IMG/VR virus record: IMGVR_UViG_3300021087_000674
DNA: 64,000 nt
Reading direction: 5' to 3' (one strand)
DNA from: an uncultured virus (IMG/VR IMGVR_UViG_3300021087_000674)
Taxonomy: Duplodnaviria > Heunggongvirae > Uroviricota > Caudoviricetes
The notes beneath the pieces were generated by a model. The model ran no database searches, was not told the origin of the DNA, and was given only the letters and a program-made list of their open reading frames with translations. Made by a program: the position numbers and the translations under genes. This document shows, piece by piece, positions 6,457 through 39,541 of this stretch; positions within the stretch are counted from its first letter, which is position 1; every line of letters starts with the position of its first letter.

Positions 6457-6753
6457 ATGATATATTACATTGACATAGACGGGACCATTTGTTATACTGA
6501 AGGTAGCGACTATGATAATAGTAAACCTGATTTAGAAAAAATAAAACAGGTTAATGAATTATATGATAAAGGTCATGAAATTCATTATTGGACTTCCAGA
6601 GGAGGAATGTCTGGAAAAGACTGGTATCTATATACAGTAGCTCAACTTAATGAATGGGGTTGTAAATTTACATCAATTAACGTAGGTAAACCAGTTTATG
6701 ATAAATGGGTTGACGATAAAGCAATAAACGAAAAGGATTTTTTTAATGGCTGA
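6457..6753 (+). CDS. small HAD-family phosphatase
   Basis: YIDIDGTIC, WTSRG and GKP...WVDDKA motifs. Confidence 0.8.
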   Translation: MIYYIDIDGTICYTEGSDYDNSKPDLEKIKQVNELYDKGHEIHYWTSRGGMSGKDWYLYTVAQLNEWGCKFTSINVGKPVYDKWVDDKAINEKDFFNG

Positions 6754-7240
6754 TGATTTTGATAATGTAACGGAAGAATGTTTTACTTCCACTAAAAGTT
6801 TTTGGAACTTTCCTTGTGCTCATAGACAATATAGACACGATGGAAACTGTCATGTAATTCATGGATACAGCAGAAGTTTTCATTTTGTATTTGGAGTTAA
6901 ATCATTTACAAAAGAAGGCTTTGCAGTTGACTATGGTGACTTAAAAGAATTAAAAGCACATCTAGAACATATGTACGACCATACTCTAGTACTTGATGAA
7001 GAAGATCCATATATGGATAAATTTAGAGAATTAGAAAAAGCAGGAGTATGTAGAATTAGAACTCATCCAATGGGACCTGGTATGGAAGGTACTGCACATT
7101 ATCTTTGTGATTGGACAGACAAACATTTACGAGAAAAAACAAGAGGACGTGCTTGGGTTATTAGTGTAGAAGCAAGAGAAAATGATAAAAATAGTTCAAT
7201 CTATACAAATCCAAATGCTGGATTTAAAGGATGGTTATAA
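6746..7240 (+). CDS. queD: 6-carboxytetrahydropterin synthase (PTPS/QueD)
   Basis: CAHRQ...CHVIHGYS, DYGDLK...YDHT and REND motifs. Confidence 0.85.
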   Translation: MADDFDNVTEECFTSTKSFWNFPCAHRQYRHDGNCHVIHGYSRSFHFVFGVKSFTKEGFAVDYGDLKELKAHLEHMYDHTLVLDEEDPYMDKFRELEKAGVCRIRTHPMGPGMEGTAHYLCDWTDKHLREKTRGRAWVISVEARENDKNSSIYTNPNAGFKGWL

Positions 7241-8998: not shown

Positions 8999-9010
8999 AA
9001 CAGAATCTAA

Positions 9011-10063: not shown

Positions 10064-10066
10064 ATA
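10061..10066 (+). promoter_or_regulatory. late promoter-like TAAATA, 5 nt before the rplL ATG
   Basis: TAAATA-TTAAT-ATG with no SD. Confidence 0.55.
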
Positions 10067-10071
10067 TTAAT

Positions 10072-10443
10072 ATGGCAGAAATAGATACATTAGTAGAACA
10101 ATTAGGAAAATTAACAGTAGTTGAAGCAGGAGAACTTTCTAAAAAATTAGAAAAGGCTTGGGGACTAAACTTGGATAGCTTAATGAATCAACCAGCTCAA
10201 ACACAATCCCAAGTTGTTGAAGAATCAGCAACAGCCACAGTTATCTTAACAGGATTTAAAACTGGCAGTAAAATACCTGTACTTAAAAAAGTACGTGAAT
10301 ATTTCGAAGGGATGGGTTTATTAGAAGCCAAGAATTTTATTGAAGATTTACCAAAACCAGTTAAAGAAAACATCGAAAAAGAAGAAGCAGAAAAAGTTCA
10401 AAAGGCATTAATAGAAGCAGGCGGAACCGTAGAATTAAAATGA
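10072..10443 (+). CDS. rplL: ribosomal protein L7/L12 (bL12), full length
   Basis: N-domain LTVVEAGELSKKLEKAWG; C-domain KIPVLKKVRE..GMGLLEAK..EAEKVQKALIEAGGTVELK. Confidence 0.92.
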   Translation: MAEIDTLVEQLGKLTVVEAGELSKKLEKAWGLNLDSLMNQPAQTQSQVVEESATATVILTGFKTGSKIPVLKKVREYFEGMGLLEAKNFIEDLPKPVKENIEKEEAEKVQKALIEAGGTVELK

Positions 10444-10630: not shown

Positions 10631-13297
10631 ATGAGTTACATAAATGGTTATTTCGATAGAAGTCAAGATATCATAAGAGTGGTAGAACGAGATAACGGAA
10701 ATAGAATTTTCAGAGAATATCCAATCAAATATACATTTTACTACGAAGATCCTAGAGGTAAACATAAAAGCGTCGACGGTAAGACGTTAACTAGAATCGT
10801 ATGTAAAAACACAAAAGATTTCCATAAAGAACTTGCAATCAATAGAAACAAAAAATTATACGAATCTGACATTAATCCTATTTTTCAATGTTTAAGTGAA
10901 AATTATATTAATGCTGATGCACCTAAATTAAAAATTGCTTTCTTTGATATAGAGACAGATTTTGATCCTGAAAAAGGTTTTTCTTTACCAAGTGATCCTT
11001 TTATGCCAGTAACTGCAATTAGTGTACATTTAAAATGGTTAGATACTCTTGTTACGTTTGCTCTTAAACCTAAAAATATGTCAATGACTAGAGCAAAAGA
11101 ATCTGTTAAAAATTTTGAAAACGTAACAATTTATGAACATGAATCTCAAGTACTAACTGCATTTTTAGATATTATAGAAGAAGCAGATGTATTAAGTGGA
11201 TGGAATAGTGAAGGGTATGATCTTCCATATTTAATTAATAGAATATCTAAAACAATGAGTAAAGATGATACAAGACGTTTTTGTTTATGGAAACAATTAC
11301 CTAAAAAAAGAGAATTTGATAGATTTGGAAGAACACAAGAAACATATGATTTAATCGGACGAGTACATTTAGATAGTTTAGAACTTTATAGAAAATACAC
11401 ATATGAAGAACGACATTCATATAGACTAGATGCAATTGGTGATCACGAACTAGGAGAAACAAAAACTGTATATGAAGGATCGTTAGATCAATTATATAAT
11501 GATGACTTTGCAAAATTTATTGAGTACAATAGACAAGACGTTGCATTACTAGATAAGTTAGATAAAAAATTTAAATTAATAACTTTAACTAATGAACTTG
11601 CACATCAAAATACTGTATTACTTCAAACTACATTAGGAGCAGTTGCAGTAACAGAACAAGCCATTATTAACGAAGCACACAAAAGAGGAGTACAAGTACC
11701 TAATAGAATTAAACGTGAACCCAACTCTACTGAATCGGCGGCAGGTGCTTATGTGGCATTTCCTAAAAAAGGATTACATAATTGGATAGGTGCAATGGAT
11801 ATTAAATCACTATATCCATCTGTTATTAGAGCATTGAATATGGGTCCTGAATGTATTGTCGGTCAATTAAAACCTGAATCTACTGATGCTTTTATAGACG
11901 AACAAATGTCATTACAAAAAAAATCATTCGCATCAGCATGGGAAGGTCAGTTTGGATCTTTAGAATATGAAGCAGTGATGTCTCAACGAAAAGATTTTAA
12001 TATTACTGTAGACTGGGAAGACGGCAAAAGCGAAACAATGAGTGGAGCACAAATTTATAAATTGATATTTGATAGTAATGCTTCTTTAATGTTAAGTGCC
12101 AATGGTACAATTTTTACTAGTGATTTTACAGGCGTTATACCAGGACTATTAAAAAAATGGTATGCTGAACGACAACATTTACAAGAAATGAAACAAAAAG
12201 CCGTAGATGCTAATAACGATGCAGAAATAGGATTCTGGGATAGAAGACAATTAGTGAAAAAAATTAACTTGAATAGTTTATATGGTGCAATATTAAATCC
12301 AGGTTGTAGATTTTTTGATAAAAGAATAGGACAATCCACAACATTATCAGGTAGACAAATTACTAAACATATGGCGGCTAAAATTAATGAAGTAACAACA
12401 GGAACATATGATCATTTAGGAAAATCAATAATATATGGAGATACTGATTCTGCTTATTTTTCAGCACATCCTATATTAAAAAAAGAAATAGAAACAGGTA
12501 AAATACCTTGGAATAAAGAAAGTGTTATCAAATTATATGATAAAGTTGCTGAAGAAGTTAATACTAGTTTTAAAGACTTTATGTTAGAAGCATTTCATTG
12601 TCCTAAACATAGAGGAGATGTTATTGAAGCAGGTAAAGAATCTGTTGCAGAAACAGGACTTTTTATTACTAAAAAAAGATATGCAGTATTAAATTATGAA
12701 GTAGACGGTATTAGATTAGATGAAAATACGCCTGGTAAAGTAAAAGCAATGGGATTAGATTTAAAAAGATCAGATACTCCTGTGTTTGTACAAAACTTTT
12801 TAAGTGAATTATTATTAATGGTATTAACTAAAAAAACAGAAAAAGAAGTTTTAGAAAGAATAACCGAATTTAGAATTAGTTTTAAACAACGACCTGGTTG
12901 GGAAAAAGGATCGCCTAAAAGAGTTAACAATCTTGTAGAATATGTAAGAAAAGAAAATAGATATGGAAAAACGAATATGCCAGGTCACGTTAGAGCAAGT
13001 ATGAACTGGAACAATCTTAAAAGAATGCATAACGACAAGCATTCTATGGAAATAGTAGATGGTATGAAAGTTATTGTATGTAAACTTAAAAAGAATCCAT
13101 TAGAATATACATCTGTTTCATATCCTACGGATCAACTACGTATTCCAAAATGGTTTAAGGAATTATCTTTTGATGGTGACGCAATGGAATCTACTTTAAT
13201 TGACAATAAATTAGGAAACTTACTAGGAGAACTAAACTGGGATATTCAATCTACACTACAAGATAATACATTTAGTTCTATGTTTGAATTTGAATAA
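10631..13297 (+). CDS. family B DNA polymerase (gp43-like)
   Basis: Exo motifs FFDIETD, GWNSEGYD, YNRQDV; Pol motifs DIKSLYPS, KINLNSLYG, YGDTDS. Confidence 0.97.
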   Translation: MSYINGYFDRSQDIIRVVERDNGNRIFREYPIKYTFYYEDPRGKHKSVDGKTLTRIVCKNTKDFHKELAINRNKKLYESDINPIFQCLSENYINADAPKLKIAFFDIETDFDPEKGFSLPSDPFMPVTAISVHLKWLDTLVTFALKPKNMSMTRAKESVKNFENVTIYEHESQVLTAFLDIIEEADVLSGWNSEGYDLPYLINRISKTMSKDDTRRFCLWKQLPKKREFDRFGRTQETYDLIGRVHLDSLELYRKYTYEERHSYRLDAIGDHELGETKTVYEGSLDQLYNDDFAKFIEYNRQDVALLDKLDKKFKLITLTNELAHQNTVLLQTTLGAVAVTEQAIINEAHKRGVQVPNRIKREPNSTESAAGAYVAFPKKGLHNWIGAMDIKSLYPSVIRALNMGPECIVGQLKPESTDAFIDEQMSLQKKSFASAWEGQFGSLEYEAVMSQRKDFNITVDWEDGKSETMSGAQIYKLIFDSNASLMLSANGTIFTSDFTGVIPGLLKKWYAERQHLQEMKQKAVDANNDAEIGFWDRRQLVKKINLNSLYGAILNPGCRFFDKRIGQSTTLSGRQITKHMAAKINEVTTGTYDHLGKSIIYGDTDSAYFSAHPILKKEIETGKIPWNKESVIKLYDKVAEEVNTSFKDFMLEAFHCPKHRGDVIEAGKESVAETGLFITKKRYAVLNYEVDGIRLDENTPGKVKAMGLDLKRSDTPVFVQNFLSELLLMVLTKKTEKEVLERITEFRISFKQRPGWEKGSPKRVNNLVEYVRKENRYGKTNMPGHVRASMNWNNLKRMHNDKHSMEIVDGMKVIVCKLKKNPLEYTSVSYPTDQLRIPKWFKELSFDGDAMESTLIDNKLGNLLGELNWDIQSTLQDNTFSSMFEFE

Positions 13298-13298
13298 T

Positions 13299-13838
13299 AT
13301 GGCTACACACGGAATGATAGATTTGGAAACTTTGGACACTACACCTAGTGCTACGATTCTTACATTAGGAGCAGTTAAGTTTAATCCATATAATACTCAA
13401 ACACCTCATACTGATTTATATCTTAGAATAGATGTAGATGAACAAACAAAAATAGGAAGAAGTGTAAATGAGAAAACATTAGAATGGTGGGGGCAACAAG
13501 ATAAAGAAGTTAAAGATGAAGCATTTACAGACGAAGGAAGAATTAATTTAGAAGAAACAACAAGAGTTCTTAACAAATGGTGCGTAGGATTAGATGAACT
13601 TTGGTGCCAAGGTCCATTATTTGACTATGCAATATTACAAAATTTATATGCACAATTAGAAAAACCTGTGCCATGGAACTTCTGGCAGATCAGAGATTCT
13701 AGAACATTGCAAAATATGTTGCCAAAAGACATGAGAGTAAGCCCTAGAACGGACTTGCATAATGCTTTGGCTGATTGCAAATATCAAGCTAGAGGTGTTC
13801 AAAAGGCATATAGATATTTTGGAGTTGAAAGAGGATGA
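13299..13838 (+). CDS. DEDDh 3'-5' exonuclease (DexA/ExoVIII-like)
   Basis: MIDLETL, FDYAIL, RDSRT and HNALADC motifs. Confidence 0.88.
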   Translation: MATHGMIDLETLDTTPSATILTLGAVKFNPYNTQTPHTDLYLRIDVDEQTKIGRSVNEKTLEWWGQQDKEVKDEAFTDEGRINLEETTRVLNKWCVGLDELWCQGPLFDYAILQNLYAQLEKPVPWNFWQIRDSRTLQNMLPKDMRVSPRTDLHNALADCKYQARGVQKAYRYFGVERG

Positions 13839-13849: not shown

Positions 13850-13878
13850 TTGACTTCGAATAAAAACCTAAATATAAT
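13850..13878 (+). promoter_or_regulatory. sigma70-type promoter
   Basis: TTGACT-17 nt-TATAAT. Confidence 0.85.
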
Positions 13879-13896: not shown

Positions 13897-14622
13897 ATGA
13901 AAAGTATCTTACAAGATATTGTTGCTCATACGCATTCATTAGGATTTTTAAGTTTAGTAAAAATCACAAATGAAGAGCAAACAAAAATAGAAAGTATGGC
14001 TGAAGATCGTTCAGTTATATTAAGTGCGAGCACCAACGATAAAGTAAATGAATTCGAAGGTGTGTTTGGTATGCCTAATTTAGATAAATTAGCACTCCAT
14101 TTAAAATGTCCAGAGTATGACAAAAATGCAAAACTCAATGTTGTATCTTCTGTTAGAAATGGAAAAAAGGTTCCAACTAATATTCACTTTGAAAACGAAA
14201 AAGGTGATTTTCAAAATGATTATAGATTTATGAGTACTGAAATTATTAACGAGAAATTAAAATCTGTTAAATTTAAAGGTACTGCTTGGGATATAGAGAT
14301 TGAACCAAGTATAGCATCTATACAAAGATTAAAATTACAGGCGGCGGCACACGTAGAAGAAACTGTATTCACTATTAAAACAGAAAATAAAAATTTAGTA
14401 TTTTATTTTGGTGATGCGAATTCTCACGCAGGTAATTTTATATTTCAACACGATGTTGGAGAACTAAAAAAAGCATGGAGTTGGCCTATTCAACAAGTTA
14501 TTAGTATATTAAGTCTTGATGGCAGAATGAAAATGAAAATTTCTGATCAAGGAGCAATGCAAATAACTGTAGATAGTGGTGTTGGTGAATACAATTATAT
14601 TTTACCAGCTCAAACAAAATAA
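13897..14622 (+). CDS. probable DNA polymerase sliding clamp (gp45/PCNA-like)
   Basis: 241 aa, next to the polymerase; two-fold beta-alpha-beta pattern and C-terminal YNYILPA. Confidence 0.5.
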   Translation: MKSILQDIVAHTHSLGFLSLVKITNEEQTKIESMAEDRSVILSASTNDKVNEFEGVFGMPNLDKLALHLKCPEYDKNAKLNVVSSVRNGKKVPTNIHFENEKGDFQNDYRFMSTEIINEKLKSVKFKGTAWDIEIEPSIASIQRLKLQAAAHVEETVFTIKTENKNLVFYFGDANSHAGNFIFQHDVGELKKAWSWPIQQVISILSLDGRMKMKISDQGAMQITVDSGVGEYNYILPAQTK

Positions 14623-14632
14623 GGAGTAACAC

Positions 14633-16096
14633 TTGAACACAGACTTAACAAAAGTTCAGAAGGATTGGGCGGTATTCTTGCCAGCGATGAGTAGTTTCTT
14701 CGCGAGAGATTTAGGAAAGGCAAAACACGAAGACGATTATATACTTCCTGCAAGAGTTCCTAAAAAGTTTGAACACGGAATCCAAGGATTAAATTATATA
14801 GAACCAAAGGATACGTATTTTAACTACAAATGGAATTTATATTCCGCAGGTCACGCCGACTTGAATATGACAAAGTTTAGTGTTAGAGATGATATTGTTA
14901 GAAATAGAAATAGAGCTAATAATTGGTTACTAGGAGACTCTGGAGGTTTCCAAATAGGTAAAGGTGTGTGGGAAGGTGATTGGAAAGATCCTAATTGTCC
15001 TAAAGCTAGAAAGAAACGTGAACAAGTATTAACGTGGTTGGATGCTAATATGGACTATGGAATGATATTAGATATTCCTGCTTGGGTTTCAAGATCACCC
15101 GAAGGTGCTAAAGCTAGTAATATTAATAGCTATCAAGAAGCTGTAAATGGTACAAAAATAAACAATGATTACTTTATGAAAAATAGAAATGGTAATTGTA
15201 AGTTTTTAAATGTATTACAAGGTGAAAATTTCCAACAAGCAGACGATTGGTATGAACAAATGAAAGAATATTGTGATCCTAAAAAATATCCTAGTACACA
15301 TTTTAATGGATGGTCATTTGGTGGTCAAAATATGTGCGATATACATCTTGCATTAAAGAGACTTGTTGCACTACGTTTTGATGGATTGCTTGAAAAAGGT
15401 GTTCATGATGTTGTACACTTTTTAGGAACATCTAAACTTGAATGGGCAGTATTATTAACAGATATACAAAGAGCTATAAGAAAATATCACAATCCAAATT
15501 TTATGATTACATTTGATTGTGCTTCTCCGTTTTTAGCTTGTGCCAATGGTCAAATTTATATTGACATCGAAATAAAAGATAGAAAAAAATGGGTATACAG
15601 AATGCAGGCAAGTGCAGATAATAAAAAATATAAACCAGATCCCAGAACGTTTAGAGATGCTGTACTTGAAGAAAAAATATTTAAAAATTTTAGAGAGAGT
15701 CCAATTAGTAAAAGATTAATGCTTGATGATGTATGTTGTTATTCTCCTGGAGAATTAAACAAAATGAAAAATGATCCGAAAACTAGTTGGGATTCATTTA
15801 GTTATACTTTACAAATGGCTCACAATGTTTGGATGCATATTACAGCAGTACAAGAAGCCAATGAAGCATATGACAAAGGAATATATCCAGGTATGTTATT
15901 ACAAGAAAAATTTGATAAAATTTCTTTTAGAGATATTATAGAGGCTATATTTGCAACTAGTAGTAGAGATGAAGCAAACGCAGTTATAGAAGAATTCCAA
16001 AGATATTTTATGACAGTAATAGGAACAAGGGGGGCGACTGGCAAGAAAACGGTGAACGCAAGTACACAATTTGCTAATTTATTTGAGGAGGTATAA
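14633..16096 (+). CDS. TGT-fold guanine transglycosylase (DpdA-like)
   Basis: LGDSGGFQ, MILDIP, NVLQG, HFLG and TFDCASP motifs of the TGT family; TTG start with SD AAGGAG. Confidence 0.75.
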   Translation: MNTDLTKVQKDWAVFLPAMSSFFARDLGKAKHEDDYILPARVPKKFEHGIQGLNYIEPKDTYFNYKWNLYSAGHADLNMTKFSVRDDIVRNRNRANNWLLGDSGGFQIGKGVWEGDWKDPNCPKARKKREQVLTWLDANMDYGMILDIPAWVSRSPEGAKASNINSYQEAVNGTKINNDYFMKNRNGNCKFLNVLQGENFQQADDWYEQMKEYCDPKKYPSTHFNGWSFGGQNMCDIHLALKRLVALRFDGLLEKGVHDVVHFLGTSKLEWAVLLTDIQRAIRKYHNPNFMITFDCASPFLACANGQIYIDIEIKDRKKWVYRMQASADNKKYKPDPRTFRDAVLEEKIFKNFRESPISKRLMLDDVCCYSPGELNKMKNDPKTSWDSFSYTLQMAHNVWMHITAVQEANEAYDKGIYPGMLLQEKFDKISFRDIIEAIFATSSRDEANAVIEEFQRYFMTVIGTRGATGKKTVNASTQFANLFEEV

Positions 16097-16287
16097 TGGC
16101 GAAGAAAGATAAAAAACTTAAAAAGTTAAAATATGAGTTTAATTATTATCAAAGAAAAGTCGAAGAAATGGAAAACGAAAGGGACACAGATAGAAGCTGG
16201 GAAAGTAAAGCATTAATAAAAAAGTTTAAAAAAATTAAACTTGCAATAAAAACTGAAATAGGAAACTTTGCAAAGAAAATATTATGA
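16096..16287 (+). CDS. small basic coiled-coil protein
   Basis: ORF with SD GAGGAGG. Confidence 0.7.
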   Translation: MAKKDKKLKKLKYEFNYYQRKVEEMENERDTDRSWESKALIKKFKKIKLAIKTEIGNFAKKIL

Positions 16288-17264
16288 AGAGTTTAATAGT
16301 AGGATTAGGTTTTGGTCAATTATATAAACGTGTTTTAGAAAAAATGGGACACAATGTAATTACTGTGGACATTAATTCAAAACATAAACCTATGTTTTTA
16401 GAATTAACTACAGCATTAGCAACTCATCCAGAATTTGATACTGCTCACATTTGTACACCTAACAATACACATTATACAATTGCCCAAAAAATTGCACCGC
16501 ATTGTAAAATGATTTTTATAGAAAAGCCTGGTGTACAAAATGCTCAACAATGGCAAATTTTAGTAAGTTCTAATAAAAATACAAAATTTATTATGACAAA
16601 AAATAATATGTGGAGAACTAAATTATGGATAGAAAGTATTGTAGCAAAAACAAACAAAAGTGATGTAGTTCATATAAACTGGCGTAATTATAACTTTATA
16701 CCTAATCCTGGTGGTTGGTTTACAAATAAGGCTCTTGCATATGGTGGTGTCTCTCGAGATTTATTACCACACTTATTAAGTCTTTTTATTACACTAAATC
16801 CCGATACTTATAAAGATTATAAACTTACAAAATTTCATAAAGAACAAAAAAATACTATAAACAGTTTAATTGAAGAAACATATAAAGCAACAGGTGATGA
16901 CAGAGCAGGAAATTATGGAACTATTAATCCTAATGGAGTATATAATGTAGATGATTTAGTAGAATTAGAATTTAGTAATAATGAAAAAACATTTAAACTT
17001 TTAGCAGATTGGAAGGCTAAAGATAAATTACCTACAAATGAATCCAATCAAGAAAATGATGATATTGCATTACATTTTTTTAAAGATAATAAAGAAGTAG
17101 AAGAAGTGCAACAATTAGGATTATGTCCTGAAAGTGCATATGAACAAATGATTACAAATTGTATAACTCACAAAGATGATAATGCATTTTGGCAAAAACA
17201 ATTAGAATATGATTTATGGATACACGAAATAATAACAAATGATGACGAAACTATTATACACTGA
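16284..17264 (+). CDS. Gfo/Idh/MocA family oxidoreductase
   Basis: IVGLGFG, HICTPNNTH, FIEKP and GGVSRDLLPH motifs. Confidence 0.88.
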   Translation: MKSLIVGLGFGQLYKRVLEKMGHNVITVDINSKHKPMFLELTTALATHPEFDTAHICTPNNTHYTIAQKIAPHCKMIFIEKPGVQNAQQWQILVSSNKNTKFIMTKNNMWRTKLWIESIVAKTNKSDVVHINWRNYNFIPNPGGWFTNKALAYGGVSRDLLPHLLSLFITLNPDTYKDYKLTKFHKEQKNTINSLIEETYKATGDDRAGNYGTINPNGVYNVDDLVELEFSNNEKTFKLLADWKAKDKLPTNESNQENDDIALHFFKDNKEVEEVQQLGLCPESAYEQMITNCITHKDDNAFWQKQLEYDLWIHEIITNDDETIIH

Positions 17265-18153
17265 AGGTAAAGGTTCATTTAATGAAGGAACTATAGATAT
17301 TCCTAGCATATCTAATGAACAAATTAAAGTTAAAGCAATATACACAGGAGTATGTAGAAGCGATATAGATATGATGCAAGGAAACTTTGGTCCATTACCT
17401 TTAACCATGCAAGGTCATGAAGGATTAGGAAAAGTAATAGAAAAAGGAAAAGATGTATATGATGTAGACATAGGAGACTTTGTAGCAACTAGAGGTGAAC
17501 CTGCATATGCGGACTTTTATAATTGCGAGGCAGGAACTTATGTTAAAGTACCCGAATGCGATCCTAAATATATTATAGAACCAGTTGCTAGTGGTATAAA
17601 CATAATCAATTCTTGTAAGATGCCAATTGAAAGAAGAGGTAGAAAACAAGGAGCAAGATTATTAATTATAGGAAGTGGGTTTTTAGCACAGGTTGTATAT
17701 CATTATCTTTTAAATTTTATGTTAGAAAAAAATATTCATTTTAATATTACAGTATACGGTCATAGTAATAAAGAATTATGGGGCAACAAACTTTCTGATG
17801 CAATTGACGGAAAGTTTGATGTTGTAATTGATCTTAATAATAGAAATGAAGCATTTGAAAAAGAAATATTTAATACAGAAGCATTATTAATAATGGGTGC
17901 AGAAAAACCTAATAAAGTTACAACAACATTTTCTACAATGCTATGGAATTCAATGACTTTAAAATTTCCTAGTCCACGAGATAGTGGATTTATAGAGTGT
18001 ATGCATAAAGCAGTAGAATTAATACATTCAGGTAAAATTGATGTATCTTCTTTTTGGACAAAAGGGTACGATAGAAATACTGAATGGAAAGATGCATTTA
18101 ACGAAGGTCTTAATAGACCAAAAGGATATAGTAGAGGATATATTAAGTGGTAA
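17239..18153 (+). CDS. MDR (Zn alcohol dehydrogenase-like) oxidoreductase
   Basis: GVCRSD, GHEGLG, EPVA and IGSGFLA motifs. Confidence 0.88.
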   Translation: MMTKLLYTEGKGSFNEGTIDIPSISNEQIKVKAIYTGVCRSDIDMMQGNFGPLPLTMQGHEGLGKVIEKGKDVYDVDIGDFVATRGEPAYADFYNCEAGTYVKVPECDPKYIIEPVASGINIINSCKMPIERRGRKQGARLLIIGSGFLAQVVYHYLLNFMLEKNIHFNITVYGHSNKELWGNKLSDAIDGKFDVVIDLNNRNEAFEKEIFNTEALLIMGAEKPNKVTTTFSTMLWNSMTLKFPSPRDSGFIECMHKAVELIHSGKIDVSSFWTKGYDRNTEWKDAFNEGLNRPKGYSRGYIKW

Positions 18154-18157
18154 AAAA

Positions 18158-18682
18158 ATGTTAGACACGAGTAAAAGAAAAGAATCAGTATATTTTACAG
18201 GTGAAGAAATAGAACAAACACCTATGATTGGACAGAGAACATTATTTGTTGTTGGAATTAGACCTGCAAAAGAAATAGAAGAATTAGCTAGTAAAAAGGA
18301 TATAAAACACGTTTACTTTGGTACAAGTCAAAGTTTTAATCCTAGCAGTGAAACAGATTGGAAAGACTGGTATGTTATGATGACAATACTATTAGAAAAA
18401 AACTATTGGGTTACATTAGATTTTGATGTCAGTTATTCCAATGACGTAATAGAATCGGGATTAATGGCCTTTGAAAAGTTTATTCCAATGATAAGTGCTA
18501 AAATTCCAAACATTGAAAAACTGAATAAAAATGCAGTTTTAAAAATAGATGATACTACGTGGGGTTTAACAAACAAAGGAGTATGGTCCAAAGACCTCAA
18601 CACTTTAAAAGGCTATATGCAATATACAGAATGGTCAGAATATAAAGACGATACCGTTTTGGACATTGACAATGAAAAATAA
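18158..18682 (+). CDS. hypothetical protein
   Basis: ORF; YFTGEEIEQTP...TLFVVG...KIDD. Confidence 0.7.
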   Translation: MLDTSKRKESVYFTGEEIEQTPMIGQRTLFVVGIRPAKEIEELASKKDIKHVYFGTSQSFNPSSETDWKDWYVMMTILLEKNYWVTLDFDVSYSNDVIESGLMAFEKFIPMISAKIPNIEKLNKNAVLKIDDTTWGLTNKGVWSKDLNTLKGYMQYTEWSEYKDDTVLDIDNEK

Positions 18683-18694
18683 AACTGTTATAAT
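18666..18694 (+). promoter_or_regulatory. consensus sigma70 promoter
   Basis: TTGACA-17 nt-TATAAT with TG extension. Confidence 0.9.
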
Positions 18695-18723
18695 GGACAA
18701 CTCATAAAAAGAAAAGGAACGCA

Positions 18724-19098
18724 ATGAAAAAAATGATTTGGGTAACATTTAGAAAAGAAGGAATACATAAGTATCCTGCGGCTCTAACTGACCCTAAATT
18801 AGCAACTGGAGATGAATATGATGTGTCATTTTTGGGACATCCACATAGACATACATTTCATTTTAAAGTAGCTATCGAAGTTTTTCACGATGACAGAGAT
18901 ATCGAATTCATCCAATTTCAAAGATGGATTTTGAGTTTATATAGTCAAGGTACATTACAAAACGACTTTAAAAGTTGTGAAATGATGTCAGATGATTTAT
19001 ATACACAAATTAAAAAAAGATATCCTGGTAGAAATATTGAAATAGATGTTTCTGAAGATGGTGAAAATGGATCACACGCAGTATATGAAAAGGAATAA
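18724..19098 (+). CDS. QueD-like T-fold protein (second paralog)
   Basis: EGIH...HPHRHTFHF, DRDIEF, SCEM and VSEDGENG motifs; lacks the CxxxHGH-type cysteine of QueD. Confidence 0.7.
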   Translation: MKKMIWVTFRKEGIHKYPAALTDPKLATGDEYDVSFLGHPHRHTFHFKVAIEVFHDDRDIEFIQFQRWILSLYSQGTLQNDFKSCEMMSDDLYTQIKKRYPGRNIEIDVSEDGENGSHAVYEKE

Positions 19099-19100
19099 GA

Positions 19101-20177
19101 ATGACAATTTACATTGTTGATTTGGAAGCCGTTGATACTCGATATACAAAAGAGTGGAAAACGCATCTCCCAGAACAACTAAAAAGACATACTAATAAAG
19201 AAGTAGTTAACATAAGTGGAGGCGATACACCTCAAAAAACTACGCCGGGTGCTTTTTTAAACTTTGGTGGAACCAATGTTTATAAGAGTAATCAATTGGC
19301 TAAAATTGGAGAAATGTTTTGTGAAGGTAAAATTAAAGATGGAGATTATTTCTTATATACTGACGCTTGGAATCCTACAGTCATACAATTAAAATATATG
19401 GCAGAACTATTAGGCGTTAAAATAAAAATAGGTGGTATGTGGCACGCCGGGTCATATGATCCAGCAGACTTTTTAGGTAGATTAATTGGAAAGAAACCTT
19501 GGGTAAGATTGGCAGAAGAAAGTATGTATGAAACTTTTGATCATAACTTTTTTGCAACACAATTTCATACAGATATGTTTAGTGATACATTTATTAAAGT
19601 AGTTACTAGAAAATTAGAAGCTCAAATGAATCAAAAAATAAAAAGAGTAGGTTGGCCTATGGAATATATGGAACGTAATCTTGCTCAATATAAAAATATG
19701 CCAAAGAAAAAACAAATATTATTTCCACATAGACTTGCACCTGAAAAGCAACTAGACATATTTCAAGACCTTAAAGATTCTATTGGAAGCGAATATGATT
19801 TTATAATATGTCAGGAACAAACATTGAGTAAAGTAGAATATCATAATTTACTAGGAGAATCTAAATTAATCTTTAGTGCTAACTTACAAGAAACATTAGG
19901 TATACGTTGGTATGAAGGTGCACTATTAGATGTTATACCAATGGTGCCAAATAGATTAAGTTATAAAGAAATGGCAATTGAAGAATTTGCTTACCCTAGC
20001 GAATGGACAATTGATATGGAACATTATCGTAAACACAAACAAGAAGTAATAGACAAAATACACGACTATATGGAAAATTATTCAAAATATATTCCATTAA
20101 TATGGAAACAAAGAGAAATATTAAAAAATCAATTTTTCTCTGGTAAAGCATTATACGAGGTAGTAAAATATGGCTAA
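19101..20177 (+). CDS. GT-B (family 4-like) glycosyltransferase
   Basis: WHAGSYD, FPHRLAPEKQ and QETLGIRWYEG motifs. Confidence 0.8.
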   Translation: MTIYIVDLEAVDTRYTKEWKTHLPEQLKRHTNKEVVNISGGDTPQKTTPGAFLNFGGTNVYKSNQLAKIGEMFCEGKIKDGDYFLYTDAWNPTVIQLKYMAELLGVKIKIGGMWHAGSYDPADFLGRLIGKKPWVRLAEESMYETFDHNFFATQFHTDMFSDTFIKVVTRKLEAQMNQKIKRVGWPMEYMERNLAQYKNMPKKKQILFPHRLAPEKQLDIFQDLKDSIGSEYDFIICQEQTLSKVEYHNLLGESKLIFSANLQETLGIRWYEGALLDVIPMVPNRLSYKEMAIEEFAYPSEWTIDMEHYRKHKQEVIDKIHDYMENYSKYIPLIWKQREILKNQFFSGKALYEVVKYG

Positions 20178-20730
20178 AGACAAAGTAACACCAGAACAAA
20201 AAAATAATTTATTAACAAATGGTCTCTATTTGTTAATGGACGAAATTAATACAGATTCTTGTAGAGCTTGTATTCAATGGATTATGAATTGCAATCTTGC
20301 TTCTACTAGATTGCCTAAACTAACTTTAATTATTAATTCACCTGGCGGTGATGTTCATGCCGCATTTGCATTAATAGATACAATCAAAGCTAGTACAATA
20401 CCTATTAAAACTGTAGGATTAGGATTAATTGCCTCTTCCGGATTTTTAATTTTTATTGCAGGAAAGAAAGGAGAAAGGATACTTACACCTAATACTTCAA
20501 TATTATCTCATCAATACAGTTGGGGAAGTGATGGCAAAGAACACGAACTATATGCTCGTGTTAAAGAATTTGAGCTATCAACTAAAAGAATGGTAGAACA
20601 TTACAAAAAATGTATTGGAATGTCTGAGAAAAAAATTAAAGAAGTATTATTACCGCCACAGGACGTTTGGTTATCGGCTGAAGAGGCTAAAAAACTAGCA
20701 ATCTGTGACAAAATAGAAAAACTTTATTAA
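20170..20730 (+). CDS. clpP: ClpP-like protease subunit
   Basis: INSPGG, GLIASSG (Ser), LSHQ (His) and QDVWLSAEEA (Asp). Confidence 0.88.
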   Translation: MAKDKVTPEQKNNLLTNGLYLLMDEINTDSCRACIQWIMNCNLASTRLPKLTLIINSPGGDVHAAFALIDTIKASTIPIKTVGLGLIASSGFLIFIAGKKGERILTPNTSILSHQYSWGSDGKEHELYARVKEFELSTKRMVEHYKKCIGMSEKKIKEVLLPPQDVWLSAEEAKKLAICDKIEKLY

Positions 20731-20742: not shown

Positions 20743-21264
20743 ATGACAAAGAAAACAAAAAAACAAACTAAAACACCAGACTTATCTGGTAAAGCCCAAT
20801 GGTCTAAAGGGGAAGGACCATATGGAGAATGGCCCGTTTATCCTAGTTCATCTTGGATGCCAAGTGATAGCGGAGTTCCTAGAGATACAGGAACTATAGC
20901 AGTTAATTTTGATGACAATGGTGGAGGAATAGATTCGTCTAACACCCCACCCATAACTTATTCTTATGGTCTCGGATCTATATCTGGAGCACCACCTTCT
21001 GCAAATGAAGGACTAGAAGTTACATATGGAGGAGGCGGTCCTTTACAAGCACAATTCGAAGCAGATGCAGTATCAGGACAATATGCTTTTGATTATGATT
21101 TTGCAGAACCTAAACCTTTTCAAAAATCTATGCCTAGTCTTTCCCAAGTAGAGGAAATGGCTGTAATATATCCTTCATTAAAAATTGCATACGAAAAATT
21201 TAAAAACGTTTATAGAATAGTATATGACGATTGGGCGGCAAGGCAAAATAAAGATGATGTTTAA
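20743..21264 (+). CDS. hypothetical protein with Gly/Pro/Ser-rich N-terminal region
   Basis: ORF with SD AAGGAG. Confidence 0.7.
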   Translation: MTKKTKKQTKTPDLSGKAQWSKGEGPYGEWPVYPSSSWMPSDSGVPRDTGTIAVNFDDNGGGIDSSNTPPITYSYGLGSISGAPPSANEGLEVTYGGGGPLQAQFEADAVSGQYAFDYDFAEPKPFQKSMPSLSQVEEMAVIYPSLKIAYEKFKNVYRIVYDDWAARQNKDDV

Positions 21265-21724
21265 AACTATAGAAACTAAAAAAAGTTACTTTACTATGAT
21301 TCAAATGAGACATAGTCTTAATATGATTTTGTCTGAAATGTCAGGTATTAATTGGAAACCTCATATTGTTTTAGGAATTAATAGAGGTGGTTGTGTACCA
21401 GGCATTTACCTTAGTCATGCTTTAAATGTACCTCACGAAACATTAGACATTAGACTTAGAGATCATAAAAGTAAACCTAGTTTAGCAGTTTTAGAAAAAG
21501 CTAACGCTTTTCAAAAAAAAATATTAATTGTAGATGACATTAATGATACTGGAGCAACATTTAATTATATTAAAGATAACTTTGGTGCTCCTGATAATGT
21601 AAAATTTGCAAGTATTATACATAATGAACCAAGTAAATTTCAAGAATTACATTTTAAAGGATATACAATTAATAAAGATAAAAATCCAGTATGGATTGTA
21701 TTTCCTTGGGAAGAATGGGAATGA
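21254..21724 (+). CDS. type I phosphoribosyltransferase (Gpt/Hpt-like)
   Basis: GINRGG, LIVDDINDTGAT and WIVFPWE motifs. Confidence 0.9.
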   Translation: MMFKTIETKKSYFTMIQMRHSLNMILSEMSGINWKPHIVLGINRGGCVPGIYLSHALNVPHETLDIRLRDHKSKPSLAVLEKANAFQKKILIVDDINDTGATFNYIKDNFGAPDNVKFASIIHNEPSKFQELHFKGYTINKDKNPVWIVFPWEEWE

Positions 21725-22107
21725 TAAAACCTGACACATTAGATAAAGCTCAAGCAGAAAATAGAGCACCTTGGAAAGATGTAGTTCATGAATTTAAAGA
21801 TATAGTATGGTATAATGACGGCTATCCAGTAACAGAAGGACATTCTTTAGTTGTGCCTAAAGAAGCAACACAAAATAATATAATAAAATGTTTTGATTTA
21901 GCATTAAAAATTGCTAATGACAATGTTGCTAAAGGAGTTATTGACGGTTATAATATTGGAATTAATATAGGAGATAGTGCTGGGCAAACTATAAAATATC
22001 CTCACATACATTTAATACCTCGTAAAAATGGAGATACTAAAAATCCTAAAGGAGGAATAAGAAACGTTATACCCGGAAAAGGAGATTACACAAAGAAAAA
22101 TGTCTAA
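21721..22107 (+). CDS. HIT family nucleotide hydrolase
   Basis: PVTEGHSLVVP and AGQTIKYPHIHLIPR motifs. Confidence 0.88.
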   Translation: MIKPDTLDKAQAENRAPWKDVVHEFKDIVWYNDGYPVTEGHSLVVPKEATQNNIIKCFDLALKIANDNVAKGVIDGYNIGINIGDSAGQTIKYPHIHLIPRKNGDTKNPKGGIRNVIPGKGDYTKKNV

Positions 22108-23514: not shown

Positions 23515-24192
23515 ATGAGAACATCCGAAAAGATTAAACAAAGATTAATAGACAAAAAGATACGTTTTTTTGCAAACGACAATATCGCCAAGTATTTGGA
23601 GAAAGGTGAATTAAAAGAATTAGAAACAGAAATAGAAGAAGCATTTGAAGAAGTTTTAGAAGCATTAGTAATTGATACTGAAAATGATCACAACACAAAA
23701 GAAACTGCAAAACGTGTTGCAAAAATGTATATTAATGAAATATATTCAGGTAGATATAATCCATTACCTAAAATTACATCATTTCCGAATACGGGATATA
23801 AAAGTTTATACACTAGTGGTCCAATTAGTGTTAGATCAACCTGTGCTCACCATTTTCAAAACATTGTAGGAAATTGTTGGGTAGGAGTGTTACCTGAAGA
23901 TGAAGTTATAGGTTTAAGTAAATTTAATAGAATCGTACACCACATTGCAGAGAGACCTCAAATACAAGAAGAAATGACGACACAAATTTCTGAAGCATTA
24001 AGAAAATATGCTAAAACACCTAATGTAGCAGTATTAGTTAAAGCAAAACATCATTGTTTAACACAACGTGGTGTAAAAGAATCTGACAATGATATGACTA
24101 CCGCAATTATGTTAGGCGCTTTTGATACCCATGCACCACTTAAAAAAGAATTTTATGATATCTGCTTTAGTATGAAAGGACATAACAGTTAG
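23515..24192 (+). CDS. folE: GTP cyclohydrolase I
   Basis: ETAKRVAKMY, STCAHH, GLSKFNR, RPQIQE and HHCLTQRGV motifs. Confidence 0.95.
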   Translation: MRTSEKIKQRLIDKKIRFFANDNIAKYLEKGELKELETEIEEAFEEVLEALVIDTENDHNTKETAKRVAKMYINEIYSGRYNPLPKITSFPNTGYKSLYTSGPISVRSTCAHHFQNIVGNCWVGVLPEDEVIGLSKFNRIVHHIAERPQIQEEMTTQISEALRKYAKTPNVAVLVKAKHHCLTQRGVKESDNDMTTAIMLGAFDTHAPLKKEFYDICFSMKGHNS

Positions 24193-24199: not shown

Positions 24200-25063
24200 A
24201 TGGAATCAAACGAATTAAGAGTTACTGAAGCATTTATATCAGTACAAGGTGAGGGTAGATTTGTAGGAGTACCTAGTGTATTTTTACGATTGTTTGGCTG
24301 TAATTTTAAATGTCGAGGCTTTGGAATGCCAAAAGGCGAATTAGCTGACGATTATTTAAAAGTAAACGCAGATGATCCAAAGTATAAAAAACTTAAGGAT
24401 TTACCTTTAGTGCATAGAGGTTGTGATAGTTATGCATCATGGGACGCAAGATTTAAAAAGTTCACTAAAGATTATACTATCGACGAATTAGTTGAAAAGT
24501 TATTATCTTTAACACCGGAAGGTAAGTGGACTTGTAATAACGGACAAGATATACATCTTGTTATAACAGGAGGAGAACCATTTTTAGGGTTTCAAAAACA
24601 TTATGTTGAATTATTTGAACATCCTAGAATGCAAGATTTAAAAAATGTTACATTTGAAACAAACACTACACAACCTATCGGAAAGGGTTTATCGGACTGG
24701 ACTACGACACAAAATAAAATACATATTACGTTTTCGTGCTCTCCGAAACTTACCGTTTCCGGAGAACGTTGGGAAGATGCTATTAAACCCGATGTTGCTA
24801 AAAGTTACTTTGATGTACCCAATAGTTATTTGTATTTCAAGTTTGTTGTTTGTGATGACTTTGACGTTAACGAAGTTACTAAAGCTGTTGAACTTTATAA
24901 AAATGCAGGTGTCGACTGTCCTGTCTATTGTATGGCTGTCGGTGGATGTTATGAAGAATACCAAGAAAACGCAAAAAGTGTTACCCAACTTGCAATGCAA
25001 AGAGGATGGAGATATAGTCCACGATTGCACGTCGATATTTTCGGAAACGAATGGGGAACTTAA
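24200..25063 (+). CDS. queE: 7-carboxy-7-deazaguanine synthase (radical SAM)
   Basis: SVQGEG...FLRLFGCNFKC...CDS, TGGEP, FETN, SPKL and RLH motifs. Confidence 0.92.
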   Translation: MESNELRVTEAFISVQGEGRFVGVPSVFLRLFGCNFKCRGFGMPKGELADDYLKVNADDPKYKKLKDLPLVHRGCDSYASWDARFKKFTKDYTIDELVEKLLSLTPEGKWTCNNGQDIHLVITGGEPFLGFQKHYVELFEHPRMQDLKNVTFETNTTQPIGKGLSDWTTTQNKIHITFSCSPKLTVSGERWEDAIKPDVAKSYFDVPNSYLYFKFVVCDDFDVNEVTKAVELYKNAGVDCPVYCMAVGGCYEEYQENAKSVTQLAMQRGWRYSPRLHVDIFGNEWGT

Positions 25064-36192: not shown

Positions 36193-36196
36193 ACAA

Positions 36197-37481: not shown

Positions 37482-37500
37482 GAATTTTTTCCGACATCAA

Positions 37501-37516
37501 TATTTAACACTAAATA
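37501..37516. promoter_or_regulatory. back-to-back divergent TAAATA boxes
   Basis: TATTTA-ACAC-TAAATA between divergent genes. Confidence 0.65.
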
Positions 37517-37521
37517 TTGGC

Positions 37522-39540: not shown

Positions 39541-39541
39541 T

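Follow-up and report, generated by a model that had tools for sequence, protein, structure and literature searches.

A probable QueC-less DpdA3/DpdL DNA-modification locus with a companion glycosyltransferase in a marine phage related to PA5oct

Does the gene run that follows the DNA polymerase gene in this uncultured tailed virus encode a new 7-deazaguanine modification of DNA, as the preliminary description proposed, or a known modification with additional genes? The virus is a giant phage of wide marine distribution, with Pseudomonas phage PA5oct among its relatives. We analysed one stretch of it, 64,000 nucleotides long (the window), together with a marine comparison set of 80 loci that represent one phage lineage (at least 62% identity); marine counts refer either to the 64 loci with at least 4.5 kb of downstream sequence or to the 72 whose upstream sequence extends for 1.2 kb or more. 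The core of the locus is probably of a known kind, a QueC-less DpdA3/DpdL system, and a deazaguanine DNA-modification core is very probably present in this phage. The fuller reading, in which a QueC-less 7-deazaguanine modification of DNA has its insertion and tailoring genes here and the whole chain includes a sugar step, has in our judgement somewhat less than an even chance of being right.

Layout of the locus

The features discussed below are as follows.

6746..7240, + strand: QueD (CPH4 synthase); PF01242 5.4e-19, phrog_2389 8e-32
13850..13878, + strand: sigma70-like promoter P1, TTGACT-17-TATAAT, in the gap upstream of the clamp-like gene; an 11/12 consensus match only
13897..14622, + strand: 241-aa clamp-like protein, clamp-like by position and size only
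14633..16096, + strand: probable DNA guanine transglycosylase of the DpdA3 family (487 aa, the long form), assigned from TGT fold, motifs and PA5oct homologue
16096..16287, + strand: 63-aa lysine-rich ORF, subclade-restricted (15/64 loci)
16284..17264, + strand: Gfo/Idh/MocA-type NAD(P) oxidoreductase; PF01408, motifs, 20/64 loci
17239..18153, + strand: MDR (zinc alcohol dehydrogenase-like) oxidoreductase; PF08240, motifs, 20/64 loci
18158..18682, + strand: 174-aa protein, family unknown, conserved in 63/64 loci
18666..18694, + strand: sigma70-like promoter P2, TTGACA-17-TATAAT with TG, upstream of dpdL; consensus match only
18724..19098, + strand: DpdL, 124-aa QueD-like protein of presumed T-fold, proposed CDG decarboxylase; LxxxHRHxF motif, PA5oct QCG76199.1
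19101..20177, + strand: GT4-like GT-B glycosyltransferase (GT), 358 aa, assigned from fold, invariant residues and co-conservation
21224..22107, + strand: purine phosphoribosyltransferase-like (PRT) and HIT genes, conserved along with the module
23515..24192, + strand: FolE (GTP cyclohydrolase I); PF01227 6e-45
24200..25063, + strand: QueE (CDG synthase, radical SAM); phrog_2076 4.2e-50, with NCBIfam QueE models at 1e-12 to 2e-9, under cut-off

An ORF check of the window recovered all listed ORFs, on the + strand, where the preliminary description had placed them (the listed ORF of the 174-aa protein begins at TTG 18038, within the MDR gene). Its assignments of a sigma70 promoter, a TGT-fold gene, two oxidoreductases, a QueD-like gene and a GT-B gene, with queD at 6.7 kb and folE/queE at 23.5-25 kb, agree with our own. 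P1 is followed by a Shine-Dalgarno site and an ATG at 13897, and dpdA3 starts at a TTG 6 nt past a GGAG and 10 nt past the clamp-like stop codon. P2, absent from the earlier description, is a perfect extended -10 promoter match ahead of the 124-aa gene. Overall, the window has no excess of promoter-like sites (47, versus 40.8 +/- 6.8 in shuffles); taken at face value as sigma70-like by consensus, the two predicted promoters divide the region into clamp-like-dpdA3-redox-174aa and dpdL-GT-clpP. Contigs of four RNA libraries from three studies match dpdA3, dpdL and the GT gene at 99-100% identity, which hints at expression, with DNA carry-over possible. The 63-aa ORF had no family matches in Pfam, NCBIfam or PHROGs.

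The product of 13897-14622 is clamp-like by position and size only. It lies downstream of PolB in all 72 marine loci with sufficient upstream sequence, matches phrog_12062 (unknown function; 1.6e-37), and has homologues in Phosso, where the annotation is sliding clamp (hhalign 99.9%), and in PA5oct, where it is structural protein. Against T4 gp45 the hhalign probability was 0.5%, and a profile search of the PDB returned no matches.

Transglycosylase and precursor genes

The 487-aa protein is confidently predicted to have a TGT fold. Its predicted structure (AF2 pLDDT 93.3) matched tRNA-guanine transglycosylases in all 50 PDB matches listed by Foldseek (best E 1.2e-6, probability 1.00), at a target-normalised TM of about 0.5 and approximately 12% identity. 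By sequence alone it had no match in Pfam, NCBIfam, PHROGs or a phmmer search of the PDB, and a profile search of the PDB with the family reached TGT at E 1.1-1.6 only. Residues D102-S103-G105 (DSGGFQ), D147, H262 and D295 are invariant in the 56 family sequences; D102-S103-G105 and D295 align with DSGGLQ and SYDS of DpdA2 from Acidovorax phage ACP17 and of a gene annotated as queuine tRNA-ribosyltransferase in Xanthomonas phage BUDD (hhalign 96.3% and 96%, respectively). The hhalign match to the DpdA3 prototype, gp042 of Cellulophaga phage phiST, is weak (68.5%, E 4.6e-5, 83 columns) and falls below that to ACP17 DpdA2. In Data S1 of Cui/Hutinet et al. 2023 (PMC10516641) the PA5oct homologue, QCG76197.1, appears under DpdA3, the subfamily of phiST CGPG_00065 and the Campylobacter phage proteins.

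Its nearest solved structures act on tRNA, and the enzyme could in principle do likewise, with host or phage tRNA rather than DNA as its substrate; we consider this highly improbable, given the low identity to those structures, the failure of PF01702 (the Pfam TGT model) to match any of the 56 family members, the lack of tRNA genes within the 64-kb window, the constant position of dpdA3 between the PolB/clamp-like and FEN-type nuclease genes, and the reported G modification of PA5oct DNA. These observations support a DpdA-type enzyme of the DNA-replication module, not a canonical tRNA Tgt, and bear out the DNA-side reading made earlier.

The 124-aa protein carries L37-GHP-H41-R42-H43-T-F45, in agreement with the LxxxHRHxF motif that replaces CxxxHGH and defines DpdL (PMC10516641); L37, H41, H43 and F45 are invariant in 27 sequences, including phiST gp040. 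It is 55.6% identical to PA5oct QCG76199.1, a DpdL in Data S1 of the same paper, and its nearest named Atlas cluster is PTPS, a name that 24% of the members carry (score 0.93). The predicted FolE-QueD-QueE supply is complete in the window, and QueC is absent: no match to QueC, QueF or PF01702 was found among window ORFs scanned against Pfam. By established pathway knowledge FolE, QueD and QueE would convert GTP to 7-carboxy-7-deazaguanine (CDG). DpdL would act on the free base, by decarboxylation to 7-deazaguanine according to the published proposal (its CDG decarboxylase activity is a proposal in the source as well; PMC10516641), and the long-form DpdA3, judging from fold, catalytic Asp and context, would swap guanine in phage DNA for the deazapurine.

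The DpdA3/DpdL pair of this candidate new modification is, however, already published (PMC10516641). In phiST, a QueC-less DpdA3/DpdL system makes 2'-deoxy-7-deazaguanosine (dDG), which is the sole product measured in any DpdL/DpdA3 phage (Cui, Hutinet et al., NAR 2023; PMC10516641). dDG lies outside the known preQ0/preQ1/G+/ADG set named in the preliminary description, but it has been in print since 2023. Because it is the known DpdL/DpdA3 product, the default expectation is plain dDG, not a new base. Expression of DpdL and DpdA from phiST or ACP17 in E. coli gave no dDG, and the authors note that further enzymes may be required (PMC10516641).

The glycosyltransferase and the redox pair

What no published pathway explains is that a glycosyltransferase and two dehydrogenases are joined to the published gene set; we found no publication on the 358-aa GT. 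Its structure prediction (pLDDT 87.6) has the two-Rossmann GT-B fold, and a fold search gave BshA as best match (E 2.1e-10, TM 0.67), with MshA, PimA and glycogen synthase also matching. R211, K216, E264 and E272 are invariant in 30 family sequences, so that both the R/K pair and E-x7-E are intact; E-x7-E with a basic R/K pair in the C-terminal domain is the motif of GT4-like retaining GT-B enzymes. The window protein has no Pfam match, including Glycos_transf_1, and PF00534 occurs in 29% of one Atlas cluster near it. By its predicted fold and motifs, this is a GT4-like GT-B glycosyltransferase.

The GT gene lies downstream of dpdA3 in all 64 related marine loci with sufficient flank; these are one phage lineage, and synteny may therefore partly reflect descent. 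Six cultured phage lineages likewise have it in one cluster with DpdL: the two adjoin directly in PA5oct, ACP17 and Phosso and are 1.5-2.8 kb apart, in the same cluster, in BUDD, Xanthomonas phage X1 and BCSR5. The BUDD GT abuts the gene annotated as queuine tRNA-ribosyltransferase, and that of BCSR5 a 446-aa gene at the corresponding position. Among genome-contig loci, the GT is adjacent to a DpdA3 homologue in 25 of 28. Of those 25, 17 are on bacterial contigs and show no match to phage replication genes of the window. The four of these 17 that were scanned against Pfam (L100, L103, L106 and L108), and L118 as well, have integrase, resolvase, transposase, GmrSD or nSTAND3 genes; in two of these five a YhhQ-like gene is directly upstream of the GT. 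DpdL is present in only 2 of the 17 bacterial islands, and GT and DpdL therefore need not share one intermediate. Taken together, the data support the GT as a real, conserved companion of DpdA3.

The Gfo/Idh/MocA protein (PF01408 4.4e-8, 34.3 bits versus a cut-off of 24) retains GLGFG, EKPG and D159-x3-H163, with no NCBIfam equivalog model reaching its cut-off, and the MDR protein (PF08240 8.9e-11, 42.4 bits versus 23.5) retains GVCRSD, GHEG and GSGF, in which we take the Cys/His/Glu residues to be zinc ligands. The pair forms a triplet with the 174-aa gene. That protein had no match in Pfam, PHROG or PDB; its homologues adjoin ACP17 DpdA2 (E 1.9e-24) and follow the PA5oct Gfo/MDR pair (E 7e-65), and through it the redox pair is linked, indirectly, to the modification system. 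In PA5oct the triplet lies 25 kb from the cluster, and its two enzymes are degenerate, neither GxGxG/EKP nor the Cys/His zinc motifs being retained; redox tailoring therefore cannot be general. Co-conservation with the transglycosylase gene, on which the preliminary description had staked its reading, was thus found for the GT (64/64 and 25/28); the oxidoreductases are an accessory pair that lacks general co-conservation, occurring in 20 of 64 marine loci, 19 of these in the close subclade.

A possible continuation of the pathway is that the GT4-type enzyme would glycosylate the deazapurine, before or after insertion, with an NDP-sugar as donor. Tailoring of the sugar or of that donor would fall, in the window's subclade, to the 174-aa protein and the Gfo/Idh/MocA-MDR pair, which is intact there. 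A sugar-bearing deazaguanine in DNA is plausible. Also to be weighed is that the locus, like that of phiST, makes plain dDG (or dCDG), and that the 174-aa protein, the redox pair and the GT serve some other end (a missing helper step for DpdL/DpdA, glycosylation of a protein, of a different DNA target or of a small molecule, or cofactor supply); to this reading we assign a real but minority share of the probability. It accords with the only product measured, with a redox pair that is variable and, in PA5oct, degenerate, and with the distribution of the GT, for which no homologue was found in 11 of 28 DpdL-bearing phage records (7 lineages). It fits less well with a GT that stays beside the long DpdA3 in bacterial islands so minimal that few other genes are shared, with the invariant GT catalytic motifs, and with the grouping of DpdL proteins, those of GT-bearing phages being 55-72% identical to the window's and that of phiST 33%. 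No hydroxyl that a GT4 enzyme could use as acceptor is obvious in 7-deazaguanine, which counts against a sugar step and is in line with plain dDG.

An improbable third route is pre-replicative, with the purine phosphoribosyltransferase (21224-21724) salvaging the deazapurine to a nucleotide, HIT and a GMP reductase (9011-10063) reshaping the G pool, PolB incorporating the product, and DpdA3 only proofreading or patching. In most loci the PRT and HIT genes accompany the module (a PRT match in PA5oct is weak, at 26% identity), the GMP reductase scores 466 bits, over cut-off, and DpdA3 phages show complete G replacement (PMC10516641), hard to reach by base exchange alone. Against this, no deazapurine-nucleotide-specific kinase or reductase was identified, the bacterial islands have DpdA3 and GT without PRT, and the authors of that study favour post-replicative insertion wherever DpdA is present (PMC10516641).

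Returning to post-replicative insertion followed or preceded by glycosylation, we tentatively propose, as an idea that may well prove wrong, that a glycosylated 7-deazapurine is present in virion DNA of this lineage and of the cultured phages PA5oct, ACP17, BUDD and Phosso, made by a DpdA3-GT4 pair that also works in bacterial defence-type islands, and that the subclade's intact redox pair converts the sugar, or its donor, to give a second, redox-tailored version. In a bolder variant, DpdL proteins that accompany a GT may have no decarboxylase role and may instead yield a side chain with an acceptor hydroxyl. If true, a glycosylated 7-deazapurine would be the first sugar-bearing purine in DNA.

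Comparison with known systems

The locus resembles phiST in having FolE, QueD and QueE without QueC, a DpdL with LxxxHRHxF and a TGT-fold DpdA adjoining replication genes. It differs in the length of DpdA3 (487 aa, versus 259 aa in phiST, the hhalign match being weak) and in the divergent DpdL, and phiST yielded no homologue of the 174-aa protein, the redox pair or the GT (E <= 0.01 for the last). A long DpdA3 also occurs in Vibrio phage 2.275.O, together with QueC and QueF, and there a GT of this kind is absent, which counts against the chain with a sugar step.

The PA5oct cluster (EST35_0314-0322) shares the order PolB, clamp-like, DpdA3, GT/DpdL, QueE, FEN, with GT 43% and DpdL 56% identical to the window's; the order of GT and DpdL is reversed, and the triplet stands apart with its two enzymes motif-less. 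PA5oct DNA is reported to be restriction-resistant as well as G-modified. ACP17 has the 174-aa homologue, DpdA, GT (37% identical, fold TM 0.85-0.89) and DpdL (57% identical) in one run between FolE and QueE, but its DpdA is classed as DpdA2, there is no redox pair, and its heterologously expressed DpdL and DpdA2 yielded no dDG (PMC10516641).

More distant likenesses concern the sugar step. In vertebrate tRNA, QTMAN and QTGAL are reported to add a sugar to a 7-deazaguanine derivative after TGT insertion, on RNA and on the queuosine cyclopentenediol, an acceptor that the window's pathway cannot make; QTMAN/GTDC1 is a GT4-type GT-B enzyme. T-even phages use GT-B alpha- and beta-glucosyltransferases to sugar a modified DNA base (glucosyl-hydroxymethylcytosine), although that base is a pyrimidine with a hydroxymethyl acceptor, and the fold matches listed for the window GT (50 PDB, 50 viral) do not include the T4 enzymes. 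The bacterial Dpd systems (DpdA/DpdB/DpdC; dPreQ0, dADG) likewise place a DpdA-type transglycosylase in genomic islands, and the bacterial GT-DpdA3 pairs, like them, sit among integrases and defence-type genes; the difference is that the partner of DpdA3 here is a glycosyltransferase.

Gene order and surroundings of the module

The window is AT-rich (29-36% GC). Its phage replication and nucleotide genes form a single block on the + strand from position 27 to about 35,000, in which the genes considered here are arranged as follows.

6746-7240, + strand: QueD
10631-13297, + strand: family-B DNA polymerase
13284-13838, + strand: DEDD-type exonuclease
13897-14622, + strand: 241-aa protein, clamp-like by position and size
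14633-16096, + strand: 487-aa protein, transglycosylase
Between the 487-aa gene and the next gene, + strand: 63-aa ORF
16284-17264, + strand: Gfo/Idh/MocA oxidoreductase, Gfo (PF01408, 4.4e-8)
17239-18153, + strand: MDR dehydrogenase (PF08240, 8.9e-11)
18158-18682, + strand: 174-aa protein (ORF listed as 214 aa; the sensible start is the ATG at 18158)
18724-19098, + strand: 124-aa protein, DpdL
19101-20177, + strand: 358-aa protein, glycosyltransferase (GT)
Downstream of the GT, + strand, in order: ClpP, purine phosphoribosyltransferase-like, HIT, FolE (23515-24192), QueE (24200-25063), 2OG oxygenase and FEN/RNase H-type nuclease

The identity of the clamp aside, the genes named in the preliminary description are borne out by ORFs and by fold and family matches. 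For the clamp-like 241-aa protein, profile comparison with T4 gp45 gave a probability of 0.5% and a profile search of the PDB had no match; the protein is homologous (99.9%) to a Phosso gene annotated as a sliding clamp. Among the window ORFs scanned against Pfam, the QueC, QueF and TGT models found no match, and the 64-kb window holds no tRNA genes; QueC was also without a match in the nearest record (G001, a 37.7-kb fragment), and its absence is a statement about the 64-kb window only.

The two top-scoring + strand sigma70-like matches, TTGACT-17-TATAAT at 13850-13878 and a perfect TTGACA-17-TATAAT with an upstream TG at 18666-18694, coincide with the two intergenic gaps, and such sites as a class show no excess (47, versus 40.8 +/- 6.8 in shuffles). 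The 487-aa gene starts with TTG, 6 nt past GGAG and 10 nt past the stop of the 241-aa gene. Given the promoter positions and this spacing, co-transcription of the clamp-like and transglycosylase genes, as previously suggested, is a reasonable reading.

Nearly the whole 6.3-kb stretch, by a threshold of at least 95% of sampled words, is present in 14 DNA runs (12 studies) of marine or metagenome origin, and four of these may be the source sample. Four RNA libraries from three studies yielded contigs with 99-100% identity to portions of dpdA3, the redox genes, dpdL and the GT gene. As evidence of expression these contigs are weak, since the libraries may contain carried-over DNA; gaps in their coverage and differences in depth are uninterpretable. 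Beyond the block, the mostly - strand stretch at 35041-52149 is a dense cluster with eight radical-SAM genes, one of them (35041-36192) with an HMPTM zinc ribbon; two genes exceed the NCBIfam cut-off for 'twitch domain-containing radical SAM' (42229-43647, 397 bits; 46141-47406, 339 bits), and further members of the cluster are an Asp/Arg beta-hydroxylase-like gene (48756-49409) and a short gene of SDR/epimerase-like type (38986-39555).

The transglycosylase, DpdL and the expected base

FolE, QueD and QueE make 7-carboxy-7-deazaguanine (CDG), and DpdA enzymes swap guanine in DNA for 7-deazaguanines. The 487-aa protein matched nothing in Pfam, NCBIfam or PHROGs, nor in the PDB by phmmer; its profile reached TGT in the PDB at an E of about 1 only, and 56 of its relatives were without a Pfam match. 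The AlphaFold model built from the 56-member alignment (pLDDT 93.3, pTM 0.92) recovered tRNA-guanine transglycosylases in all 50 of the Foldseek matches listed against the PDB (best E 1.2e-6, probability 1.00, about 12% identity). S71, D102, S103, G105, P149, H262, G265 and D295 are invariant in this alignment of 56 diverse members, and D102-S103-G104-G105-F-Q107 forms the DSGGFQ loop. By profile comparison, the catalytic core matches DpdA2 of Acidovorax phage ACP17 (96.3%, E 1.5e-9) and a Xanthomonas phage BUDD gene annotated as queuine tRNA-ribosyltransferase (96.0%), with D295 aligned to the aspartate of the SYDS motif in both.

Carriers of this huge family abound: of 8000 scored candidate proteins, each representing a 90%-identity cluster, 7616 match at E <= 0.001, and none of the 120 matches listed has a Pfam domain. 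At 50% identity, 935 clusters match. Among cultured phages, the closest relatives are encoded by PA5oct-like Pseudomonas jumbo phages (33.6% identity over 84% of the query), Vibrio phage 2.275.O and Sinorhizobium phage Phosso, in each case as a hypothetical protein. Cui, Hutinet et al. (NAR 2023, PMC10516641) list the one from PA5oct, QCG76197.1, under DpdA3 in their Supplementary Data S1. Against the 259-aa DpdA3 prototype of Cellulophaga phage phiST, profile comparison gives a weak match (68.5%, over 83 columns), and we therefore place the 487-aa protein in the DpdA family and use DpdA3 as the published, provisional label for the long form.

The preliminary description called the 124-aa protein QueD-like, which holds, but the protein is DpdL, already in print. 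PMC10516641 describes DpdL as a QueD-like T-fold protein of phages with DpdA, FolE, QueD and QueE and without QueC, in which LxxxHRHxF replaces the QueD signature CxxxHGH, and lists PA5oct QCG76199.1 as DpdL; its authors propose that DpdL decarboxylates CDG. Such an activity would account for 2'-deoxy-7-deazaguanosine (dDG), the base that was measured in the DNA of phiST. In the window protein the motif is L-GHP-HRH-T-F; across 27 sequences, including phiST gp040 and QCG76199.1, L37, H41, H43 and F45 do not vary. The core thus belongs to the published system, and the product expected on present knowledge is dDG, which does lie outside the set of known bases considered earlier but is not new (published since 2023).

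Co-conservation of the glycosyltransferase and the redox pair

The 358-aa protein has no Pfam match. Its model (pLDDT 87.6) has the fold of GT4-type GT-B enzymes, with BshA the best match (E 2.1e-10, TM 0.67) and others to a B. anthracis GT4 enzyme, MshA, PimA, PimB' and glycogen synthase; among viral models the best match is an ACP17 protein (E 1.2e-32, TM 0.85-0.89). R211, K216, E264 and E272 (E-x7-E spacing) are invariant across 30 homologues. The modelled fold points to a GT4-like GT-B glycosyltransferase, and one that travels with the system. Structure prediction of a DpdA3-GT complex scored 0.00, which gives no verdict and counts neither way.

We took the best 80 of at least 598 IMG/VR loci that encode a relative of the transglycosylase, searched them with the window proteins, and counted downstream genes where the locus was long enough.

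Occurrence of window genes in the 64 marine loci with at least 4.5 kb 3' of dpdA3
DpdL: 64/64
GT: 64/64
174-aa protein: 63/64
Gfo: 20/64
MDR: 20/64
ClpP: 18/64

The 241-aa gene is present in 72 of the 72 marine loci with at least 1.2 kb upstream. Because these loci are one lineage (62-100% identity), their synteny may reflect descent alone; linkage across lineages is stronger evidence. In the phage collection, GT homologues occur in 22 records, and the GT is clustered with DpdL in six phage lineages.

PA5oct-like phages: DpdA3-GT-DpdL
ACP17: 174-aa homologue-DpdA2-GT-DpdL-QueE
Phosso: clamp-x-DpdL-GT-x-FolE
BUDD: GT, the gene annotated queuine tRNA-ribosyltransferase, DpdL, QueE
Xanthomonas phage X1: GT to DpdL about 1.5 kb
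Burkholderia phage BCSR5: DpdL, then some 2.8 kb downstream the GT, then a 446-aa gene

Scanning the GT alignment against one genome per prokaryote species gave 28 loci, in 25 of which a DpdA3 homologue (profile E 1e-12 to 1e-164) adjoins the GT; the remaining three are cut contigs. Seventeen bacterial-contig loci, from genera including Pelagibacterium, Devosia, Azospirillum, Sulfitobacter, Ochrobactrum and Shimia, are without a match to the phage replication genes of the window, and only two of the 17 have DpdL within 8 kb. Pfam, run on 66 of the 95 ORFs listed and in five of the six loci chosen (all but L113, the shortest ORFs omitted), finds resolvase, integrase, transposase, an AbiEii-type ATPase, nSTAND3 and GmrSD around the bacterial GT-DpdA3 pair, and in two loci a YhhQ-like (Vut_1) gene, one of them below the Pfam cut-off, lies directly upstream of the GT. 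With adjacency in 25 of 28 loci and DpdL mostly absent from these islands, the tightest partner of the GT is therefore the long DpdA3, both in phages and on mobile or defence-type islands of bacteria. Co-conservation with the TGT gene holds for the GT and is not general for the redox pair (Gfo with MDR).

In four bacterial islands an ORF of 537-585 aa adjoins the GT or DpdA3 homologue (L103:10589-12205, L106:10552-12309, L113:10560-12311, L118:9074-10687); it has no counterpart in the window, and no Pfam match in the three copies scanned (L103, L106, L118). One Sulfitobacter island with GT-DpdA3, L106, also encodes a Gfo/Idh/MocA oxidoreductase (1.3e-17, L106:15031-16038) and a second glycosyltransferase, of the GT1 family (L106:12266-13501), both within 7 kb.

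Gfo and MDR are accessory, occurring together in 19 of 19 close-subclade marine loci (at least 78% identity) and in one of the 45 others (L070). The window's ClpP-family protease gene (20170-20730), which overlaps the end of the GT gene, is confined to the subclade with the redox pair. MDR was found elsewhere in none of five more distant marine contigs, a count that is uninformative for records 14-26% complete. In PA5oct, the homologues of Gfo and MDR (EST35_0362 and EST35_0363) lie 25 kb from dpdA3, and the next gene, EST35_0364, encodes the 174-aa homologue (E 7e-65); the order shared with the window makes Gfo-MDR-174aa a conserved triplet. The 174-aa homologue alone adjoins DpdA2 in ACP17 (E 1.9e-24) and DpdL in nearly all marine loci, which ties the redox pair to the system, indirectly. 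Searches with the 174-aa family gave no match: 27 members against Pfam (E <= 1), 27 against PHROGs, and a profile against the PDB.

Marine Gfo keeps GLGFG, EKPG and D-x3-H, and marine MDR keeps GVCRSD, GHEG and GSGF; the PA5oct Gfo copy has lost the glycine loop and EKP, and its MDR copy reads GVSNND and YGCES. No equivalog model reached its cut-off for either enzyme, and their weak likeness to sugar, inositol and threonine dehydrogenases is uninformative. A pseudogene reading of the Gfo genes of two related loci (L016, L019) was rejected: the apparent in-frame stops come from ORF coordinates that ran past the natural stop.

A possible sugar step and comparison with known systems

To the gene linkage and the fold and motif identities, which are well supported, a mechanism may be added in which the GT would glycosylate the deazapurine and the added sugar would be tailored by the redox pair. 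Of this interpretation, made in the preliminary description, the GT as companion of the TGT gene stands (64/64 marine loci; 25/28 genome loci); the redox pair proved only accessory, and dDG is the product to be expected. The GT keeps its catalytic residues invariant and sits in a near-minimal operon with the base-exchange enzyme, and QTMAN and QTGAL glycosylate tRNA queuosine, so the principle is shown for RNA. Against a sugar step, phiST makes plain dDG without such a GT, 7-deazaguanine (DG) offers no obvious acceptor, the GT is missing from seven DpdL-bearing phage lineages and from Vibrio phage 2.275.O, and DpdL is mostly missing from the bacterial islands. In favour of a sugar step, E. coli carrying DpdL and DpdA of phiST or ACP17 made no dDG, and the authors suggested that further enzymes are needed (PMC10516641); a sugar step might explain this failure.

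A nucleotide-pool route, through phosphoribosyltransferase, HIT protein and GMP reductase, is a minor rival. Xanthine/guanine-type phosphoribosyltransferase-like and HIT-family genes (21224-22107) are kept with the module in most related loci, which makes it conceivable that deazapurines are salvaged to nucleotides. The stretch just upstream of the DNA polymerase gene, 7802-10443, encodes an NAD-dependent formate dehydrogenase (653 bits) and a GMP reductase (466 bits), both scoring above cut-off, together with a homologue of ribosomal protein L7/L12; GMP reductase beside deazaguanine genes could deplete the guanine nucleotide pool. The 2OG-Fe(II) oxygenase (25481-26140) was dropped as a maker of an acceptor hydroxyl; it has matches in five of the 80 IMG/VR loci, some of which may end short of it.

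To our knowledge, sugars on DNA bases are confined to pyrimidines, and a glycosylated deazaguanine, if real, would add a new chemical class to the known DNA bases, with a bearing on evasion of restriction, CRISPR and type IV defence. The sugar step might also explain the guanine modification of PA5oct, a therapeutic-candidate phage, and with several cultured carriers the question is directly testable by mass spectrometry. PA5oct DNA resists five restriction enzymes, which the authors of that study read as modified guanine (PMC12191111). Titles and abstracts in a full-text literature search contained no link of a glycosyltransferase to DpdA or DpdL and no name for the PA5oct base, and the PA5oct GT, QCG76198.1, is absent from the PMC10516641 supplement. 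In Vibrio phage 2.275.O (L002, 7908-15000) the module includes QueC: after the long homologue of DpdA3 come a 370-aa protein other than this GT and then QueF, a YhhQ-like gene, QueC, an amidotransferase and FolE.
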